A stretch of 59,330 nt of DNA, taken from a virus (taxonomy: Duplodnaviria > Caudoviricetes). Below are positions 2,498-58,804 of this stretch, one piece after another; within the stretch, counting starts at the first letter, position 1; every line of letters begins with the position of its first letter. The stretch is from the IMG/VR virus record IMGVR_UViG_3300017747_003223, positions 1 through 59,330 of that record. One strand, written 5' to 3'. Made by a program: the position numbers and the translations under genes. The notes below the pieces were generated by a model. That model saw only the letters and a program-made list of their open reading frames with translations, made no database searches and was not told where the DNA came from.

Positions 2498-3094
2498 ATG
2501 CTCCCCCAAATCATTCGTCAGCCCGGATTCCGTCGTCTGGATAACTCCTTCATCATCCTCACCGTGATGGCCTCGGGCCTCTGGGCCCCCTGTCTCCACC
2601 TCGGCAACGGCAACCTCATGCTCACCAACTCATGGTGTGAGAGTGCCACCCCTTTGGGTGCCCTTAACCGCTGGTACGATCTCAACCCCAACGAGCGGGG
2701 TAACCTCTCCGCCGTGAACGATGCAGCCGTCCTTGTCGTCGGCGTTGACCCCTTCTCCATCGCCCCCACCTTGGAGCCCTTCCTCTTCGGCGACATCAAT
2801 GCCCCCTCCGTCTACCGCGAGCCCGAGCCCGTGGTCGAGCCCACCCCCGTCCAGCCCGTGGTGTCCGACTTCACCCCCATCGAGCCCGCCACCACCGTGG
2901 CGGTCGATCCGCGTACCGTGGAGGCTACTGACGAGAACCTTCTCGCCTTGGGCCGTCAGTCCCACATCCTCATCATCCTCCGCGACAAGCTGCGGGTCTT
3001 GGAGGAGGAGTACGACGCCCAGCAGAAGGCCTATGCCAAGCTCGTCGAGGGCTTCTCGACCTTCAAGCAGTTCCCGCAGCAGTCCGAGCAGTAA
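2498..3094 (+). CDS. hypothetical protein with C-terminal coiled coil
   Basis: Likely start ATG 2498; the upstream part of the listed ORF is an out-of-frame shadow of 2203-2460. Confidence 0.7.
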   Translation: MLPQIIRQPGFRRLDNSFIILTVMASGLWAPCLHLGNGNLMLTNSWCESATPLGALNRWYDLNPNERGNLSAVNDAAVLVVGVDPFSIAPTLEPFLFGDINAPSVYREPEPVVEPTPVQPVVSDFTPIEPATTVAVDPRTVEATDENLLALGRQSHILIILRDKLRVLEEEYDAQQKAYAKLVEGFSTFKQFPQQSEQ

Positions 3095-3170
3095 CCACCT
3101 CCACCCGTACCATCTTCCAACCTCCTCTCCTCCCTCTTTTCCCCTTACCCCTTTTAGAAGGTAGTATCTC

Positions 3171-3395
3171 ATGAGCGACAACACCACCTGTTCGATCCGT
3201 TTCATTGACCCCTCCGGCCTCTCGACCACCGCCGTCATCCCCGCCGGTACCACCGTGGACGTGTTCCTGCGTGAGCGGAACATCAACCCGGACGATGTGA
3301 CCGTGCGTGTCAACCGGCAGGAAGCCAACCTCGGCACCAAGCTGACGAGCGGCGACACCGTGATGGCTAGTGCGGCCAAGGTCGCCGGGGCCTAA
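3171..3395 (+). CDS. ubiquitin-like (beta-grasp, ThiS/MoaD/Ub-fold) modifier protein
   Basis: 74 aa with the beta-grasp pattern (GTTVDVFL, VRVNRQEA, LTSGDTV) and C-terminus KVAGA; first gene before E2, JAB and E1. Confidence 0.85.
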   Translation: MSDNTTCSIRFIDPSGLSTTAVIPAGTTVDVFLRERNINPDDVTVRVNRQEANLGTKLTSGDTVMASAAKVAGA

Positions 3396-3423
3396 CCCCC
3401 TCCTCTTCATCATCCCTTCGATC

Positions 3424-3452
3424 CACACCTCCTACCGGGGGTGTGTTTCATT
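3424..3452 (+). terminator. intrinsic terminator/attenuator after the Ubl gene
   Basis: CACACCTCC-TACC-GGGGGTGTG hairpin followed by TTTCATT. Confidence 0.55.
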
Positions 3453-3498
3453 ATTAGAGATTCAAGTCCTCCTCCCACCACCCTAGAAAGGAGGTTTC

Positions 3499-4836
3499 GT
3501 GGCCGCTCCCCCAGGCTTTCGCTTCACCCCCACCACCAATCCTGCAACCGCCCGTAAGAAGTGCCTTCGCTTCTTCAGTCTTCTTCGTCAGCGTTGTCTC
3601 ATGCCACCCGACATTGACAACTCCCTTCAGGGCTTCCGCTCCAACATATTGAGGGAGGCAACCCGCCTCAAACAGGGCCTTGCTCAACTCAACTTCATCC
3701 TTCGCAATCCCAACCCCGACATTGCCACCCTTCGCTCGCTCGAACACAGCGTCAACAACATCCGTTCCCGTTTGTCGGGCACCTCCAACAGCCTCATTCA
3801 GAACACCGGCAGCTTTGCTCTACGGCTCACAGACAAACGATCATCCGCCGACAATTTCCGCATCATCCCCCTTCGCCTCACCAGCGATATCCTTTTGGAG
3901 TTGGATGCCTTTGTCCGCGTCTACCCCATTCAGGTCACCAAGACCCGCATCATCATCAAGCTGCCGGACATAGTTATTGATGGAGTCCCCTTGGGGGACT
4001 ACTACTTCACACTGTCCATGCCCGAAGAAGCCACCCGGCCTAACCTTCCCGGCTACTCAGCCTGCAACTACACCATCTTCCGTGATCCCAAGCTGCCTGC
4101 CCTCTGGGGTAACCGAGACCACCCCCACATCTATGACCGTCCTTGTTGGGGCCATGCCAGTGCCCCCCTTACTGCGGCCATCAGTCGTGGTGATCTCTTT
4201 GCCATCCATGATGTTTGCCGAGCCTATCTCACCACCTACAACGAGGACTCGCCTTACATCCCCCTCTACTTGTTGGGCCTTCCCGACGTTGCCAATGCTG
4301 TTCGTGCCGGTACCATCCCTCATCGTGGTAACCGCTACTACCAGCAGAACGGCATCCCATTCGTCATTCCCTCCTTCACCAAGAAGTTACGGATAGTGGG
4401 GGAGAACGGTAGATCTGAGCCCCGCCTCCAATGCTCGCGGGACGATAAGTGGGTCTGCATTGCACGGGACTGCTGGGATATCTTCCCCCCTCCCCGCTAC
4501 ACCCCCGCCATATTGCGGGCCCTCTCTACCAACGTAGCCATCATCGACTCTCCCGGCCTCATTCCCCACCTTCAGGCTCTTTATCCGGGTCGCTACGTCC
4601 CCGCCTACGTCAACTTCACTAATCGTCCCCTTACCGTCACCACCTTCCTCCCCCGTCCGCATATGGGTAGCATCCCCAGCAACATCATCATGACTATGCG
4701 AAGTATGCGTCACGTTCACGGGTCCCTCAACTCTCTCGAACCCATCATGTCATTGGGACCCTCTGATCGTCGCCTCGTCCAGCTCCCGCGTCGTTCTCGT
4801 CGCTCCCGTTACACCACCACGGATAACCCATCATGA
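3499..4836 (+). CDS. prokaryotic E2-like ubiquitin-conjugating enzyme with N-terminal helical and C-terminal extensions
   Basis: HPHIYDRPCWG matches the E2 HPxV/I...C catalytic motif, followed by ...YNEDSPY; GTG start with AAAGGAGGT SD; lies between Ubl and JAB. Confidence 0.78.
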   Translation: MAAPPGFRFTPTTNPATARKKCLRFFSLLRQRCLMPPDIDNSLQGFRSNILREATRLKQGLAQLNFILRNPNPDIATLRSLEHSVNNIRSRLSGTSNSLIQNTGSFALRLTDKRSSADNFRIIPLRLTSDILLELDAFVRVYPIQVTKTRIIIKLPDIVIDGVPLGDYYFTLSMPEEATRPNLPGYSACNYTIFRDPKLPALWGNRDHPHIYDRPCWGHASAPLTAAISRGDLFAIHDVCRAYLTTYNEDSPYIPLYLLGLPDVANAVRAGTIPHRGNRYYQQNGIPFVIPSFTKKLRIVGENGRSEPRLQCSRDDKWVCIARDCWDIFPPPRYTPAILRALSTNVAIIDSPGLIPHLQALYPGRYVPAYVNFTNRPLTVTTFLPRPHMGSIPSNIIMTMRSMRHVHGSLNSLEPIMSLGPSDRRLVQLPRRSRRSRYTTTDNPS

Positions 4837-6020
4837 CCCCCAAACCCCTTCGCGTCACCATCTCTCCCTTGGCAGAGGCCAAGATGCGTTCAGCCATCTC
4901 TCATGCCTCACCTAACGAGGTGGGCGGCCTCCTCATCTTCCATCCCACCGAACCTTTCTTGATAACGGATATCTTCTTCCCCAAGCAGGAAGTGAAGCCA
5001 ACCTATGTCGAGTTCGATGACAACAGCATCGCCGACTGGTTCGAGTACAACGTCCTCGACCTGAACAACCGCCCTCCGCGTGAGTGGCGCTACGGCTGGT
5101 GGCACCACCACCCCTTCAACAACTCACAACCTTCAGGGAAGGACGAGGATACCCATACTCGCCACTTCACCCACGCCAACATCCCCTGGTCCATCATGAT
5201 GATTACCTGCGATGGGGCGGGAGACTTCTGCCGCCTCCGGGTTAACGTGGACGGCGGTGCCTACGTCGATATCAACCCCACTGTCATCTATGGTCGCCAT
5301 CGCATCGACCTCTTCCCCGGTGAAGAGAACTTTCTCGACGAGCTTGAGAAGTTGGTCGTCGCCACCCCCCTTCCCTCTGCCTCCGTCACCCTCCACAACA
5401 ACTGCTCCCTCTACCGCAGCTATGGGGACTACGTTGAGGCCATCGCACGGGAGGAGCGGGAACAGGGCAAAGGGGAAACGGGGGTCGTCATCGTGGGTCC
5501 CCAACCAGCGGTCACCCCTCCGGCAACAGCAGCATTCGGTGAGGGCCCCGTCAACGTCATTCGGTCGATGCAGCCGCGTAAGAAGGCCGTAGAGTCCGCT
5601 AAGACCCTCAACTACGACATTGGCCTTCGCTCCCCCCTCAACGAGAAGGAAGCCGCCGCCTTCGCTGACGTTCTCATCCGCATCGTGCCCCAAGTCCACC
5701 CCGACCTCACCCTCTACCTGTTCTACGTCTGGCAGGCCCTCGCCCCCGAGGACCGCATCACCGTCAAGAACATCCTCAACACCACCACCTCGCCCACCAT
5801 CTCCAACTTGTCTACTTGGTTTTATCCGTTCGTCATCCAATACGCCGACACCCCGAAGGAGCTTCGCAAGCGTGCAGCTTTCTTCCAGCGTATCTCCTCA
5901 GATCGGATGCCCTCATGCGTGCAACGCGCTACACCGATATCGTCAACCCCCTCCGCTACTCCCAACTCCGAGTCCTCATCGTCGGCGTCGGTGCCATCGG
6001 GCACCCCCTCGCCAGCATGA
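4833..6020 (+). CDS. JAB/MPN+ (JAMM) metalloprotease, deubiquitinase-like
   Basis: EVGG ... WWHHHPFNNSQPSGKD is the canonical ExnHxHx7SxxD motif; ATGA coupling to E2. Confidence 0.9.
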   Translation: MTPKPLRVTISPLAEAKMRSAISHASPNEVGGLLIFHPTEPFLITDIFFPKQEVKPTYVEFDDNSIADWFEYNVLDLNNRPPREWRYGWWHHHPFNNSQPSGKDEDTHTRHFTHANIPWSIMMITCDGAGDFCRLRVNVDGGAYVDINPTVIYGRHRIDLFPGEENFLDELEKLVVATPLPSASVTLHNNCSLYRSYGDYVEAIAREEREQGKGETGVVIVGPQPAVTPPATAAFGEGPVNVIRSMQPRKKAVESAKTLNYDIGLRSPLNEKEAAAFADVLIRIVPQVHPDLTLYLFYVWQALAPEDRITVKNILNTTTSPTISNLSTWFYPFVIQYADTPKELRKRAAFFQRISSDRMPSCVQRATPISSTPSATPNSESSSSASVPSGTPSPA

Positions 6021-6601
6021 TCGCTCAAGCTGGTGATTGCACCCTCACGATCATCGACCCTGACACCGTGGAAGAAGTCAACTTCGGGGCTCAGGGCTAC
6101 TCCCCCTCCCATCTTGGCGAGCCCAAGGTGGCCTGCGTCTCCCACCGCATCCACACCCTCAATCCTCAGTGCAACTTGTTCGCCATTGGGGATGCCTTCC
6201 CCTCCGCCCACCTCTCTCCTCCCACCGAGTACGATATCATCATCTCCTGCGTGGACAACATGGACATTCGCGGTGCCATCTTCGAGTGGTCCCGTGCCTC
6301 TCCTTGCCTCTTCTTGGATGCCCGCATGGGGGCCGAGATCTTCCGCCTGTTCTGCGTGCCCCCCACCAACTCTGAATCAGAGGGTGCTTATCGCTCCCGC
6401 CATGTCTCCTTCCCTCAGAGTGAGGCCTCCCCCCTTCCCTGCTCCGGGCGTACCACCCCCCATTGCTCCGCACTGGCTGCATCTTTCATCTTCCACGCCA
6501 TCACCCTCCACCTTCGTAACATCCCCATCCCCTTCTGCACGAACCTGAACCTGCCTGCATTGGACTTGTTCGCACAGAACGCCTCATCCTTCCCCCCTTG
6601 A
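5915..6601 (+). CDS. ThiF/MoeB/E1-like ubiquitin-activating enzyme
   Basis: VLIVGVGAIG Rossmann motif, IIDPDTVEEVN..Q, KV, CVDN..R and DARMG; candidate catalytic Cys in PLPCSGR; start ATG 5915. Confidence 0.92.
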   Translation: MRATRYTDIVNPLRYSQLRVLIVGVGAIGHPLASMIAQAGDCTLTIIDPDTVEEVNFGAQGYSPSHLGEPKVACVSHRIHTLNPQCNLFAIGDAFPSAHLSPPTEYDIIISCVDNMDIRGAIFEWSRASPCLFLDARMGAEIFRLFCVPPTNSESEGAYRSRHVSFPQSEASPLPCSGRTTPHCSALAASFIFHAITLHLRNIPIPFCTNLNLPALDLFAQNASSFPP

Positions 6602-17647: not shown

Positions 17648-18988
17648 ATGGAAAATGTTGAGCCCCCCGACGTAACTCCCGTTCCCCCTCCTGATGGATG
17701 GAACGAAGGAGTTCTTCCCTATCTCCGTGCATACGGGATCATTCCCCGCCCCTTCATCCCCATCACATCCTCCATGCACCGGTCAGCCTCCTGTGACCCC
17801 TTCCTCTTTTACCTCACCTACATCCTTGGCCTAGCCCCCTCCTTCCGCGTCTCTTCTAAGGCCCTAGTACGAGGATCGTGGGCCCATGTCCGCTTGGAGT
17901 ACGCTGAATCCCCCGCCGCCGCTGTCCCCTCCCTCATGCAGGGTCGTCTCAATACCCGCTTGGCAGAGATAGATCTTACGGGGGAGGCTTGGGGCTTGGA
18001 TCGTCCCACCCTTGATAGGTACAAAGAGGATGAAACGAAGTCCTTCAAGACGGCGTGGGCATGGTTCGATGCTCTCTCCGATGTTCGGCTACCCGCAGAA
18101 GCTACGGGCTTGTCCCGTCCCAGCACCTTCCTTGACTACCTCCTCCATCCCTCCCTCATGTGCCTCGGGCGTGAGATCAGGGCCCACCTTTGGGTCCGTC
18201 TCCCCAATCGTGAACCCTTCCTCGTCAGTGCTACATTCGATAGGGTCTACCTCAACACTCAGACCAACCAACTGTGGATCTTTGACTTGAAGACCTGCGA
18301 CGATATCCCCTCTCGCCGCTTAGAGACCGTCCACTTCGAGTTCCAGACCCAGCACTACCTCTTCATCCTCCGCTCGTTGTTAGAAGGGGGACACCTCAAT
18401 CACATTGCTGGTATCAACGCTCAGACGGTAGTGGGGGGTATGTGCCATCTGGCCATGCAGAAGCCCTCCATCAACTTTGATCGGCGGGTGGACCGTCCCT
18501 TCAAGTTCAATGAGCATGTCCTCAAGTCTGGCCCACGTAAGGGGCAGATCGAACTGCGGAAAGAGTTCCTGAGCGAGGAACCCCTGTTCGACCTCTATGT
18601 GGAACGCTGCAAGCGGTGGTACCGTGGTGAAGGCGAGTACCTAGAGGAACGTGCTGAGCGTGTCGTCCATCCCCCGGTCAACTTTTCTTTCAGCCCGACA
18701 GTGAAGGTGCTTGACGAGGATGGACTGCCCGACTACTATTCCCGGCTGGGAACAATCTTGGACCTGTGCCAGAAATCGGACCAACCCCCCGGATGTTTTA
18801 CCCGCAACGCTCGTTCCCTTTCTGCTAGGGAGGGGAACGATATTCTCCGCTCCTTCTACTTGTGTACCCCCCGTCAGTGGCCTGAGATCGTCGCCAGTAA
18901 CAAGATGATCCAGCATTGGCGGGATTCCGATGTAACCCCCAATACTTCATCCGGCTTTTACAACACCTTTCCAGTGAGTCCCACATGA
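17648..18988 (+). CDS. PD-(D/E)XK exonuclease (RecB/Cas4-like)
   Basis: ATFDRVY...IFDLKT...FQTQHY. Confidence 0.8.
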   Translation: MENVEPPDVTPVPPPDGWNEGVLPYLRAYGIIPRPFIPITSSMHRSASCDPFLFYLTYILGLAPSFRVSSKALVRGSWAHVRLEYAESPAAAVPSLMQGRLNTRLAEIDLTGEAWGLDRPTLDRYKEDETKSFKTAWAWFDALSDVRLPAEATGLSRPSTFLDYLLHPSLMCLGREIRAHLWVRLPNREPFLVSATFDRVYLNTQTNQLWIFDLKTCDDIPSRRLETVHFEFQTQHYLFILRSLLEGGHLNHIAGINAQTVVGGMCHLAMQKPSINFDRRVDRPFKFNEHVLKSGPRKGQIELRKEFLSEEPLFDLYVERCKRWYRGEGEYLEERAERVVHPPVNFSFSPTVKVLDEDGLPDYYSRLGTILDLCQKSDQPPGCFTRNARSLSAREGNDILRSFYLCTPRQWPEIVASNKMIQHWRDSDVTPNTSSGFYNTFPVSPT

Positions 18989-19434
18989 GTGATCCCACCC
19001 CCATCGTCCCGCCCACAGAGACCCGTATCATCCCCCTCTACGATCATATCATGGTCGTGAGGGACCAAGCCACTCAGAAGGTGGGAGGCATCATCATCCC
19101 CGAGCAAGCCAAGGAACCCCCGAACACAGGACAGGTCATCTCCACCGGTGAGGGCCGTCTGTGCCTCAGCCAAGTCATCGTTGAGGGGGGCGGTGCTGAT
19201 AACCGCGACCTCCTGTGCAAAGCTCATGTGGAGCCCCTCCGCGTTCAAGTGGGTGATAAGGTTCTCTTCCAGTCCTATGCCGGTACTCAGATCAAGATCC
19301 CCGGCACCGACGTTGAGGCCCTCATCATGCGAGAGGATGATGTGATCGCCATCATCTTGGAGCGGCCCGCCATCGACACTACCGATGTTGCCGCTGCCGA
19401 CTGTGCTGATCCGGCTCCCGACCCCTCCATCTAA
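18985..19434 (+). CDS. groES: co-chaperonin GroES
   Basis: PLYDHIMV, GGIIIPEQAKE, GQVISTGEG, VGDKVLF..YAG and LIMREDDVIA. Confidence 0.93.
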   Translation: MSDPTPIVPPTETRIIPLYDHIMVVRDQATQKVGGIIIPEQAKEPPNTGQVISTGEGRLCLSQVIVEGGGADNRDLLCKAHVEPLRVQVGDKVLFQSYAGTQIKIPGTDVEALIMREDDVIAIILERPAIDTTDVAAADCADPAPDPSI

Positions 19435-38670: not shown

Positions 38671-40866
38671 TTACTCCTTGTAACGTATCAGTATCATACC
38701 CCTGCTGAGTGGGAAGTCGAACGGAATCAACCCCGGATAGTGGGCCAGCACCTTCTTGAACTGCTCATAGAAGGTAGCCGTCCTCTCGTCGGGCAGTCCC
38801 GTCTTTCGATGAATCCTCAGCGGACTCGTATCATGGATCGCAATGAGAGCCCCCTCAGCAATCATGTTCGCGTCCAGCATGGCTTGGAGTTCTTGAGCCC
38901 GCTGTTCGAGTTCCGTATCAATGAACACCATTTCAAACTGGGGCCCATCATAGTTCTCGATGAAGTTGAACACATCCTCAGCTACTACAACGTGCCCACT
39001 CAGCCCGTAGGAGTCCAGCTTGTGGGCGAGGCACTTAGCCTTCACGGTATCCTTCTCGATGCTCACCACGGAGCCGAACCCATTCCTCTGCATGGCCATC
39101 GCCATCGACAGAGTACCGCTGCCGTTCCATGCCCCCGTTTCGAGAACAAGGCGGGGCTTCTGCACCCTAACAAGAGCACTGAGGAGTTCGAGATATTCGA
39201 TCTCGGTCGATTGACTATCCTCTGCCTTGAAGAGTTCTGCCTTCTCCAAAGGAACATGGGGATGCACATCAGCTTCATTACGCACGGCGGGACCCGTATA
39301 CACCATGGGGACACCATCTCCTAGTTTGGTAAACCATTGATACACTTCGCGGAGCATCTCGGTTGGTGTGATGCTCATTAGGGCCCGGCACCCCGCATCA
39401 CAGATGTTAGAGAAGCCCCGGCGTGCATCGAACGAACAGTCAACACAACCACACCTATCCGGGCTAACTTGTACCACCTTCACATGATCCCCCATGCCCT
39501 CATAGCATTTAGATTCAGGGCCCATCATGATAAGGGTAGGTACCCCAAGAGTAGCAGCAATCACGCTGGGACCACTGCTCACACAAATAACCAGATCAGA
39601 GGCTAACATTATAGCCATGATCTCTTCCAAAGTCCTCCCCCACATCGAATGGGGAAACTGAGGCTGGCTATCAGTGAGCCAGTGCTGTTGACCCTCTTCC
39701 ACCATCGTGAGGGCCCCGATCCCAATAGCTTCCAGCCGGAGGGCAAGGTCTACAAAATGCCCACGGGGCCAGTTCCTCGTATTGTAATAGGAAAGGGGGA
39801 AGAGGGTTACCATCCTCCTCGTACCATTCCTCGTGATCCCCTTCTTGATCTTGGCGGCCTTCTCCAACGCTTCCTGACCCAGCGTGAAGGTAGGCCGGAT
39901 AGCCGTCGTCGGAATAGGTAACAGCTTGCCACGGAACTCCAATCTCCCCGTCTGCCCAAAGTCATGGTGCCGCTCTTGTTGGCAAATGTGGTCGTAGTTC
40001 TCAGGCCAGCATCCTCCCGCCGTCTTCGCTAGCTTGTGCCCAGCCAACTGGATCAGGTCCTTGAAGGGTTTGCGGCCCGCAAAGAACTCCACATCTACTC
40101 CTTGCTTCCTCAACCCCTCAGCAAACCACAGGAAGTAGATGATATCGCCCATGCCCCCAGCCTCTGTGTTCAGCTTGATCCATTGCTGAACAAACTCACG
40201 GGGAGGTCCCTCTTCAGAATTGCTGAAGCCATTCCTCTTTCTCGGGCACTCCAAGTAAGGGTAGTCTAGTTTGGTGTATCCTTCGCCCCCCAATCGGGCA
40301 ATCTCAACTTCGCCACAGCCACACGCACCACAGAAGTAGAAGTTCGACCCCCTCATTAAGGACGGGCAGGGATCTTCGCGGCGAACACCATCGAGGGTAG
40401 TCCCAAAGCAGGAAACATGCCTCGCCCCCTTGATGGTTAGGTCCACCTTCTTCCCGGTGATCCCCTTGGACAGCATTGACTTCACAAAGGCTTCGGCCAT
40501 CTCCCAAGTCGGCAGTACCTTGGCCCATGTCTTCTTCCTCTCTTTAAGGAATTCGTAATCGGGCTGACCCTCAATGGAGAGCTTCTGTTCGGGGGTTATT
40601 CCCGTCCACGTCAACAACGCCTTCATTGCATCAGGATTACCATTGCCCTTCACGGCAATCATCTTAGCCCTGATACGATCTTCCTTCTCCTTACGAAACG
40701 CATCCCCTTCCTTGCTGCCATAACCCCCCAATAGATAGCACTGGTCGCAGACCTCCATCGAACAACCATGCTTCCACCCAAGAGATTGGCTCATCGCCCG
40801 GCACTGTCCTGGTGCCCTTTGAGAGCAATCTAACGCTCGGCTCAGTTCTCGTTGATCCATACCCAA
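38671..40866 (-). CDS. Cys-rich N-domain + GT9 (heptosyltransferase-like) glycosyltransferase + class I SAM methyltransferase
   Basis: GGMGD, RNWP..HF..LA, SDLVICVSSGP..IAA.LGVPTL..MGP and CxxC..C..C; then VLETGAWNG, VFID and HDT. Confidence 0.82.
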   Translation of the reverse strand: MGMDQRELSRALDCSQRAPGQCRAMSQSLGWKHGCSMEVCDQCYLLGGYGSKEGDAFRKEKEDRIRAKMIAVKGNGNPDAMKALLTWTGITPEQKLSIEGQPDYEFLKERKKTWAKVLPTWEMAEAFVKSMLSKGITGKKVDLTIKGARHVSCFGTTLDGVRREDPCPSLMRGSNFYFCGACGCGEVEIARLGGEGYTKLDYPYLECPRKRNGFSNSEEGPPREFVQQWIKLNTEAGGMGDIIYFLWFAEGLRKQGVDVEFFAGRKPFKDLIQLAGHKLAKTAGGCWPENYDHICQQERHHDFGQTGRLEFRGKLLPIPTTAIRPTFTLGQEALEKAAKIKKGITRNGTRRMVTLFPLSYYNTRNWPRGHFVDLALRLEAIGIGALTMVEEGQQHWLTDSQPQFPHSMWGRTLEEIMAIMLASDLVICVSSGPSVIAATLGVPTLIMMGPESKCYEGMGDHVKVVQVSPDRCGCVDCSFDARRGFSNICDAGCRALMSITPTEMLREVYQWFTKLGDGVPMVYTGPAVRNEADVHPHVPLEKAELFKAEDSQSTEIEYLELLSALVRVQKPRLVLETGAWNGSGTLSMAMAMQRNGFGSVVSIEKDTVKAKCLAHKLDSYGLSGHVVVAEDVFNFIENYDGPQFEMVFIDTELEQRAQELQAMLDANMIAEGALIAIHDTSPLRIHRKTGLPDERTATFYEQFKKVLAHYPGLIPFDFPLSRGMILIRYKE

Positions 40867-58614: not shown

Positions 58615-58722
58615 ACATGAGACACGTCATCCACACCTCTTTTGATGCAACTATCTGAACCAGCGCCGGCGTGATCGCCATTAAGTGTGATCCGGGGACC
58701 TCCATCAGGGGGTCCCCTTGTT

Positions 58723-58796
58723 TGCGGGGTAGCTCAGCCCGGTAGAGCAGCGGTTCCATGAACCGTTGGTCGCTGGTTCAAATCCAGCCCCCGCTA
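58723..58796 (+). tRNA. tRNA-Met(CAT), initiator-like with atypical anticodon loop
   Basis: T-GCGGGG/CCCCGC-T acceptor with 1:72 mismatch, GCTC/GAGC D-stem, GCGGT-TCCATGA-ACCGT, GCTGG-TTCAAAT-CCAGC. Confidence 0.85.
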
Positions 58797-58804
58797 TTTG
58801 CTGA

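Follow-up and report, generated by a model that had tools for sequence, protein, structure and literature searches.

Does a phage encode a ubiquitin-like conjugation system of its own? To our knowledge, the conjugation of ubiquitin-like proteins (Ubls) in bacteria has been shown so far on the host side only, where it is either anti-phage (Bil, and Cap2 of CBASS, an antiphage signaling system based on cyclic oligonucleotides) or of unknown role (Bub). The question is raised by IMG/VR record IMGVR_UViG_3300017747_003223, a 59,330-bp stretch of DNA that we call the window, rated 100% complete by CheckV and belonging to a lytic-looking tailed phage. At positions 3171-6601, four tightly packed + strand open reading frames (ORFs) encode a Ubl candidate, an E2-like protein, a JAB metallopeptidase, and an E1 enzyme, in this order. 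A preliminary description, made from the sequence alone, had placed four such genes here and read them as a complete conjugation set; the ORFs bear out their coordinates and strand, and the phage does carry a complete-looking set in the gene order of Bil operons. We consider it likely, with a probability of roughly 0.7, that the four genes form a phage-encoded operon for ubiquitin-like protein conjugation. Gene content, gene order, catalytic motifs, a fold model, family conservation, and mobile-element context are the observations from which we build this argument.

The four proteins of the cassette

The E1 enzyme (5915-6601, + strand; 228 residues) is a minimal protein of the ThiF/MoeB type. 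It matches Pfam ThiF at 4.8e-23 and, among PDB sequences, MoeB (4.2e-11), ThiF (5e-9), and Cap2 (8e-8). When the protein is aligned with 30 relatives, the glycines of the GxGxxG motif (G24, G26, G29), D48, K71, D114, and Cys176 are invariant in all 31 sequences, and a Cys occupies the position of Cys176 (6440-6442), the candidate catalytic residue, in 60 of 60 family E1s examined. The frame is open from 5816 (5816-6601, 261 residues); we regard ATG 5915 as the most likely start because it aligns with the N-termini of relatives. This start lies inside the Ser/Pro-rich end of the JAB gene, which the E1 gene then overlaps by 106 nucleotides.

The JAB gene (4833-6020, + strand; 395 residues) encodes a JAB/JAMM metallopeptidase domain (4833-5327; residues 1 to ~165) and an orphan C-terminal extension of ~230 residues (5328-6020), whose Ser/Pro-rich tail overlaps the E1 start. 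The domain matches Pfam Prok-JAB at 6.2e-5, which is under the gathering score, and the PADLOC JAB model at 7.5e-9. It also matches the Rpn11-like protein of Caldiarchaeum (PDB 6fjv) at 5.6e-4, with E29, H91-x-H93, S101, and D104 aligned to the JAMM residues of that structure. Thus the catalytic motifs that the preliminary description had reported for the protease and the E1 are intact. For the extension, no relative other than itself was found among 4262 candidates, and the ESM Atlas gave no usable match.

The Ubl candidate (3171-3395, + strand) has 74 residues, ends KVAGA (Gly73-Ala74), and is a ThiS/MoaD-like beta-grasp protein by family membership. Searched alone, it had no match, Pfam included. 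The small genes that precede the E2-like gene in four other loci can be aligned with the window Ubl; an R-V-N-R-Q stretch is common to them all, and their Gly-Ala end is invariant. A profile of these five Ubls led to 7650 clusters of proteins of ~75 residues, some of them named ThiS or MoaD at source and several from Planctomycetota. Pfam ThiS is matched by 25 of 27 aligned family Ubls at E<=0.1 (best 2.7e-5); among the same 27, the beta-grasp families TGS, Ub-Mut7C, ThiS-like, and SAMP2 are matched by 17, 15, 9, and 3, respectively. A family hidden Markov model (HMM) built without the window Ubl matches it at 9e-7. Against PDB sequences, the Ubl profile gave only weak matches to MoaD and RnfH (0.04-1.2), ranked below designed repeat proteins. 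Most family Ubls extend beyond the Gly-Ala by a variable tail of at most ~8 residues, an arrangement that, by analogy with Bil, fits a precursor trimmed by the JAB protein; the mature end could be either Gly73 or Ala74. Among 85 Ubl precursor tails, at least 15 finish with Ala-Ala (for example, GAA, GAAA, or GARAA), and the same holds for 11 of the 30 E2-like relatives in the P0003-P0034 alignment. A C-terminal Ala-Ala is reminiscent of protease degrons.

The E2-like protein (3499-4836, + strand; 445 residues) contains the sequence HPHIYDRPCWG. It comprises an N-terminal helical hairpin, a UBC/E2-like core (3868-4320), and an orphan C-terminal region of ~190 residues with a basic tail. H208-P209-H210 (4120-4128) and the candidate catalytic Cys216 (4144-4146) lie in the core. 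We favor the GTG start at 3499 over ATG 3601, which gives the 411-residue form found in databases, because a Shine-Dalgarno-like AAGGAGG precedes the former (3486-3501 including the GTG, read off the sequence) and none precedes the latter.

Nothing in the curated or sequence libraries resembles this protein: there was no match in Pfam (0 families at E<=1), PHROGs, PADLOC, NCBIfam, or PDB sequences. Pfam UQ_con was not matched, and no PDB E2 was found with either the single sequence or the family profile. A word-index search for relatives returned the protein itself only, a viral-contig scan with it returned nothing, and the ESM Atlas returned nothing usable. Searched exhaustively with phmmer, 1.84 billion representatives yielded 36 weak relatives (8e-7 to 1e-3), none of them annotated. 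These align over residues 125-256 at 18-25% identity, and across 31 sequences the H, P, H, C, and G do not vary. The motif reads HPH-x5-C-x-G in the window and has x6 in relatives; 73 of 74 loci have HPH-x5/6-C-x-G, and the exception is a fragmented ORF. No invariant His lies downstream of the Cys in the family. An HMM of the family built without window sequences matches the window E2 at 8e-20. One viral relative (L090:4218-5582, + strand) has T-H-P-N rather than H-P-H ahead of the Cys, with only 4 CxxC motifs. The C-terminus of the window E2 (4750-4836) carries a basic P-R-R-S-R-R-S-R stretch that aligns with the Arg/Ser-rich tails of the family members P0024 and P0025.

Does this protein have the fold of an E2? 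The full-length model has a mean predicted local distance difference test score (pLDDT) of 58 and shows a disordered tail after the helical hairpin and a core modelled with confidence; its Foldseek matches are mostly E2 enzymes, at E >= 0.056. Because the hairpin dominated searches with the full-length model, the core (3868-4320) was also folded alone. That model (pLDDT 71) has the order helix, four strands, loop, two helices. Most Foldseek rows for the core are E2s, and 50 of 50 rows re-examined from the top 1000 belong to the UBC superfold. Catalytic E2s, including the E2 domain of bacterial Cap2 and CdnG-E2, stand in the same Z band as the top matches. In the model, the HPH...Cys motif sits between the last beta-strand and the next helix, as in E2 enzymes, where the corresponding sequence is known as the HPN motif (a name that occurs in the title of PDB 9i9m). 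The E2 label given by the preliminary description thus survives in silico, in that the core models as UBC-type and the HPH/HPN...Cys is invariant. From the model and the alignments we conclude that 3499-4836 encodes a putative catalytic-type E2-like protein, of a family absent from all libraries searched.

Together the four genes take up ~1140 codons, and the stop of the E2-like gene overlaps the start of the JAB gene (4833-4836). Between the Ubl and E2-like genes, a terminator-like hairpin (3424-3445, + strand) has 9 pairs followed by a T-rich tail. Hairpin-type sites are not in excess in the region (5 versus 3.0 +/- 1.8 in shuffles), and this one is only a lead for attenuation that would favor Ubl over enzyme transcripts. 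Two other gene models were considered. An antisense ORF at 3063-3428 was rejected as a gene, since the profile support belongs to the + strand ORF. A frameshift fusion of JAB and E1 was rejected as well; we found no evidence for it, and relatives have separate, slightly overlapping genes.

A cassette family of Planctomycetota mobile elements

Is the cassette peculiar to this phage? The preliminary description had suggested surveying its conservation and had treated the phage as owner of the machinery. The Ubl alignment was scanned against genomes, one for each prokaryote species, which gave 285 confirmed relatives; 77 of the 80 loci kept are labelled as Planctomycetota lineages. In 48 of the 54 genome loci with at least 3 kb of downstream sequence, the Ubl gene is followed on the same strand by E2-like, JAB, and E1 genes. 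The cassette is patchy and multi-copy: the E2 family occurs in 15 of 401 Planctomycetota genomes, with up to 5 copies each, in a sample that is even but includes a centre genome picked for having the cassette. The flanks of ten loci contain tyrosine integrases (3 loci), DUF2958 (4 loci), DUF932, ArdC-N, and a type IV coupling protein, and also an AbiE toxin-antitoxin pair, a DNA methylase, and IS21. These carriers are integrative, partly conjugative elements. On one 4.2-Mb Pirellulales chromosome (G005:C1), both E2-like copies (3366384-3367381 and 4102317-4103308) are split over two frames and are either pseudogenes or products of assembly indels (compare L024 and L041).

The cassette also occurs in other viral records. 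An alignment-based scan of viral contigs found it in full in four further IMG/VR records of 53-70 kb, with the same gene order in 4 of 4. One is a provirus, one has terminal repeats, and two are linear (one of these only 33% complete); none has a terminase or DNA polymerase in common with the window. In the provirus (L002), the cassette is preceded at ~2 kb upstream, on the same strand, by the gene of a 497-residue AAA+ ATPase (4359-5852, + strand; Pfam AAA 4e-26, weak AAA_lid_3 1e-3) and has a large serine recombinase gene downstream; this arrangement was seen at one locus only. Scanning with one protein revealed two metagenome contig types that carry the cassette beside DNA ligase and nuclease genes. 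A contig of one metagenome type (L007:5903-6841, + strand) has a gene for a DUF6573 protein (2.4e-23) between the JAB and E1 genes. A genome-contig scan with the single E2 protein P0025 gave no confirmed relative, and neither the cassette DNA nor a tblastn search with one family E2 found anything among GenBank phages.

How does the window copy compare with its family? The typical family E2 has a zinc-rich tail with a median of 10 CxxC motifs (for example, at residues ~240-340 of P0024). By profile, this tail matches the MID1 B-box (7.3e-5); its matches to cellulose-synthase RING-like, FYVE, and TRIM21 domains are weaker. The window E2 has 0 CxxC in the 227 residues after its motif and is the only full-length E2 without the zinc-rich tail. 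The profiles and the gene order agree with the family. The window copy is the most divergent that we found, with no closer E2 relative among the 1.84 billion representatives. Judging from its sequence, the window cassette is a divergent member of a large family of mobile-element cassettes, and this family is almost entirely confined to Planctomycetota and their mobile elements. The cassette is thus not peculiar to the phage and belongs to a family borne by integrative elements. The Planctomycetota cassette is apparently undescribed: full-text searches of the literature turned up no account of this family or of an E1/E2/Ubl/JAB set encoded by a phage, although published lists of Bil or Bub operons could include relatives.

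Proposed mechanism and role

How might the cassette work? What follows on the chemistry, on where the precursor is cut, on targets, and on function is predicted throughout. The 74-residue beta-grasp protein would be made with its Gly73-Ala74 end and trimmed by the JAB protein, probably after Gly73, if the protease acts as BilC does in cutting BilA between Gly and Ala; the same enzyme could probably also remove the Ubl tag from targets. The minimal ThiF-type E1, presumably a homodimer, would adenylate the exposed Ubl C-terminus and load it on Cys176. From there the tag would pass to Cys216 of the E2-like protein, whose HPH-x5-Cys resembles the HPN...Cys site of E2 enzymes, and then to a target lysine. 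The zinc-rich, B-box/RING-like tail of family E2s is a plausible built-in E3 or target adaptor. In the phage, an unrelated region replaces this tail and the JAB protein carries an orphan extension, which suggests a retargeted system.

Several observations weigh against reading the four genes as a conjugation operon. The Arg of the N-L-x-R-Q motif of MoeB and ThiF is missing from the E1 family, where it is replaced by Ser, Pro, Thr, or Ala; the window reads N-F-G-A-Q, with Ala. Curated libraries do not recognize the window Ubl or E2, whose only link to the cassette family is by HMMs and by alignments at 18-41% identity. The structural matches of the E2 are modest (best Foldseek E 0.056 and 0.12, Z < 8, pLDDT 71 and 58), and the UBC superfold includes the non-catalytic UEV and RWD domains, which rank top. 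None of 85 family Ubls ends at Gly and 12 of 85 end exactly at Gly-Ala, so the mature end could be Ala. As for the host of the phage, its terminase has no convincing relative in the 401 sampled genomes, where the one match is weak (7.5e-5).

Could the same genes serve another chemistry, or none? In the archaeal SAMP/UbaA system a Ubl is conjugated by its E1 alone, and the 445-residue protein might likewise be a non-catalytic UEV/RWD-like adaptor or regulator. We consider this unlikely, since 31 sequences that share as little as 18-25% identity all keep the H, P, H, C, and G, the motif is found in 73 of 74 loci and is placed in the model as in E2 enzymes, one relative reads HPN, and the Z scores of catalytic E2s, the Cap2 domain and CdnG-E2 among them, lie in the band of the top matches. 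A quite improbable alternative is that the Ubl is a thiocarboxylate carrier of the ThiS/MoaD type, activated in ThiF fashion, unmasked by the JAB protein, and used in cofactor synthesis or in tRNA or DNA thiolation. The E1 does match MoeB and ThiF best, family Ubls match Pfam ThiS and are in some cases named ThiS or MoaD at source, and operons that join JAB to ThiS/MoaD sulfur genes are known, as described by Iyer et al. (2006, PMC1779556). However, the E1 scores far under all NCBIfam equivalog cut-offs (62.7 versus 275 bits for ThiF and 58.4 versus 266 bits for MoeB), the Ubl ends in Gly-Ala rather than Gly-Gly, and 48 of 54 loci co-inherit a gene for an E2-like protein whose Cys is invariant. 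Moreover, no thiamine, molybdopterin, rhodanese, desulfurase, ThiG/H, MoaE, or TtuA-like gene, and no other sulfur-transfer partner, was detected when the 61 window ORFs were scanned with Pfam at the thresholds applied, in agreement with the preliminary description, which had noted no sulfur-transfer or cofactor genes nearby. We give still less credence to the idea that the phage copy is a decaying, non-functional remnant of a Planctomycetota cassette. It is the most divergent copy, with an E2 at 18-25% identity that, among full-length E2s, alone lacks the zinc-rich tail (0 CxxC against a median of 10), and truncated or split copies do occur elsewhere; but its four frames are intact, all catalytic residues tested are kept, and a strong ribosome-binding site and overlapping stop and start codons are preserved.

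What would a phage gain from protein conjugation? Mobile ubiquitin-type operons have been proposed, by Aravind and colleagues in the text available as PMC3417536, to act as selfish pairs of modifying and demodifying activities. The cassette may aid establishment, host takeover, or the countering of defence, or it may serve in competition with other elements. We lean toward a role in helping the element settle in its host because of the early position of the genes, the lack of a detected integrase, and the establishment-type neighbors of the cassette in bacterial elements. A bolder reading, less likely than not, is that the phage tags host proteins early, for example defence or proteostasis factors, and that the parent cassette is a distinct, undescribed class of prokaryotic ubiquitination that Planctomycetota elements use for establishment in new hosts. 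It is also possible, though doubtful, that the same biochemistry is turned to defence, as a Bil-like weapon that acts not on the host but on competing phages or elements, for instance by tagging virion proteins. Bil systems comprise the same four activities, and in the account of 10.1101/2023.09.04.556158 they modify a phage tail protein and prevent assembly; the integrative elements that carry the Planctomycetota cassette also hold an AbiE pair and a DNA methylase next to it, and its distribution is patchy and multi-copy (15 of 401 genomes, up to 5 copies). Against defence, PADLOC recognizes no system in the cassette, only generic E1 and JAB domains; the flanks are rich in establishment-type genes (DUF2958 in 4 of 10 loci, ArdC-N, DUF932, and the type IV coupling protein); and the window cassette lies among early replication genes of a phage in which no integrase was found.

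Tagging of host proteins by a phage, if true, would be a prokaryotic mirror image of host Bil or ISG15-like defence, and a phage-owned kit would place the same chemistry on the side of the invader. The cassette also offers a compact, four-gene system in which to search for targets. The pairing of a classical HPN/HPH-type E2 with a RING/B-box-like domain bears on the pre-eukaryotic origin of E2-E3 cooperation, and the difference between the common, zinc-tailed E2 and the altered E2 and JAB of the phage provides a handle on how target choice is encoded.

Most of the window is made up of two blocks of genes. A + strand block at ~0.3-25.6 kb, which includes the cassette, holds replication and nucleotide-metabolism genes by Pfam and PHROGs: a UDG-family glycosylase, DUF4326, a RecD-like helicase, a family A DNA polymerase, an ERCC4 nuclease, a PD-(D/E)XK exonuclease, a Sak4-like ATPase, and a class II ribonucleotide reductase. 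A - strand block at ~25.6-52.4 kb holds packaging and virion genes, among them the terminase large subunit (PHROG 7e-41) and an SU10-type adaptor. No integrase was found among the 61 ORFs scanned, and by tblastn no GenBank phage resembles the window terminase. The sequencing-run listing for the window has two DNA runs and no RNA run. A GroES-like co-chaperonin is encoded in the replication block (18916-19434, + strand; Pfam Cpn10 1e-20, in two stretches). The virion block contains a 731-residue protein (38671-40866, - strand) with a family 9 glycosyltransferase (heptosyltransferase-like) region and a methyltransferase domain, and an ORF at 24591-25583 matches a heptose kinase/adenylyltransferase PHROG; together these two hint at sugar modification. 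The GC skew of the + strand is -0.07 to -0.32 in 28 of 29 bins. The strand is thus C-rich nearly throughout, including 25.6-52.4 kb, where genes are on the - strand, so the skew does not simply track gene orientation. A tRNA-Arg(CCT) (1406-1479) and a tRNA-Met(CAT) (58722-58797) lie near opposite ends of the record.

Comparison with known conjugation systems

To which known class, if any, does the cassette belong? PADLOC made no system-level match for the window cassette or for two other family members, and recognized only generic E1 and JAB domains. PRTRC cassettes (NCBIfam TIGR03734-03742) resemble it in bringing together a Ubl, an E2-like protein, and a ThiF-type E1 on mobile elements. We rejected PRTRC membership because the PRTRC_ThiF score is 38.2 bits against a cut-off of 144.75; the other PRTRC models of NCBIfam had no match at E<=1 in the window, L003, or L004 sets. 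A listing of the literature that names the PRTRC cassette contained no functional test of it. Membership in the ThiS-ThiF and MoaD-MoeB sulfur-carrier systems was rejected on the sub-cut-off E1, the Gly-Ala end, and the missing partner genes.

Type II CBASS, in which Cap2 and Cap3 act, was rejected on two counts: the window has separate E1 and E2 genes, and a free beta-grasp substrate takes the place of the CD-NTase. No CBASS cyclase, nucleotidyltransferase, or effector gene was found among the 61 ORFs. The Bub (6E) operons resemble the cassette more closely in layout, as they join an E1, an E2, a Ubl, and a peptidase on mobile elements. As described, they form oxyesters on Tyr or Ser, have no catalytic Cys, and always include a DUF6527 protease. 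The cassette was rejected as a Bub system, since its family has an invariant Cys in both the E1 and the E2 and no DUF6527 match was found among the 61 ORFs. The operons of type 6d include a JAB peptidase, and in the account of Iyer et al. (2006, PMC1779556) their E2 is without the classical His, which the window family possesses.

The eukaryote-like operons of Caldiarchaeum and certain bacteria (ubiquitin, E1, UQ_con E2, small RING E3, and Rpn11-like JAB) have the classical His...Cys in common with the window family. The best solved relative of the window JAB is the Caldiarchaeum protein 6fjv, and in most family members a RING/B-box-like zinc domain accompanies the E2. In the window family, however, the E2 has no UQ_con match, the Ubl is ThiS-like by profile rather than ubiquitin-like, and the zinc domain is fused to the E2, being absent altogether from the window copy.

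How close, finally, is the cassette to Bil? In the preprint of Chambers et al. (10.1101/2023.09.26.559546), BilABCD are a Ubl, an E2, a JAB, and an E1. The same source reports that the BilC of E. aridi cuts BilA between Gly97 and Ala, and that a relay from E1 to E2 operates in bacterial operons. The window cassette has these four activities in the same gene order and a Ubl precursor with a Gly followed by extra residues, and its E1 and E2 are expected to be Cys-based. The preliminary description had noted that the same enzyme set makes up Bil-type systems; by membership, however, the cassette is not one of them. BilD, as presented in that preprint, is a large, pseudo-dimeric E1 with an inactive and an active adenylation domain and a mobile helical CYS insertion, whereas the window E1 is a single ThiF domain of 228 residues (261 at most) with neither the inactive domain nor the insertion. 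BilB is described as having a catalytic Cys with a conserved His downstream and no classical His upstream, whereas the window family has HPH or HPN upstream of the Cys. Moreover, the window E2 carries a helical hairpin at its N-terminus, and most of its relatives bear a B-box/RING-like tail. We therefore rejected membership in Bil types I and II on E1 architecture and E2 motif, even though the four-gene operon is common to both. Bil is a defence system of the host, whereas the window cassette is carried by a phage.

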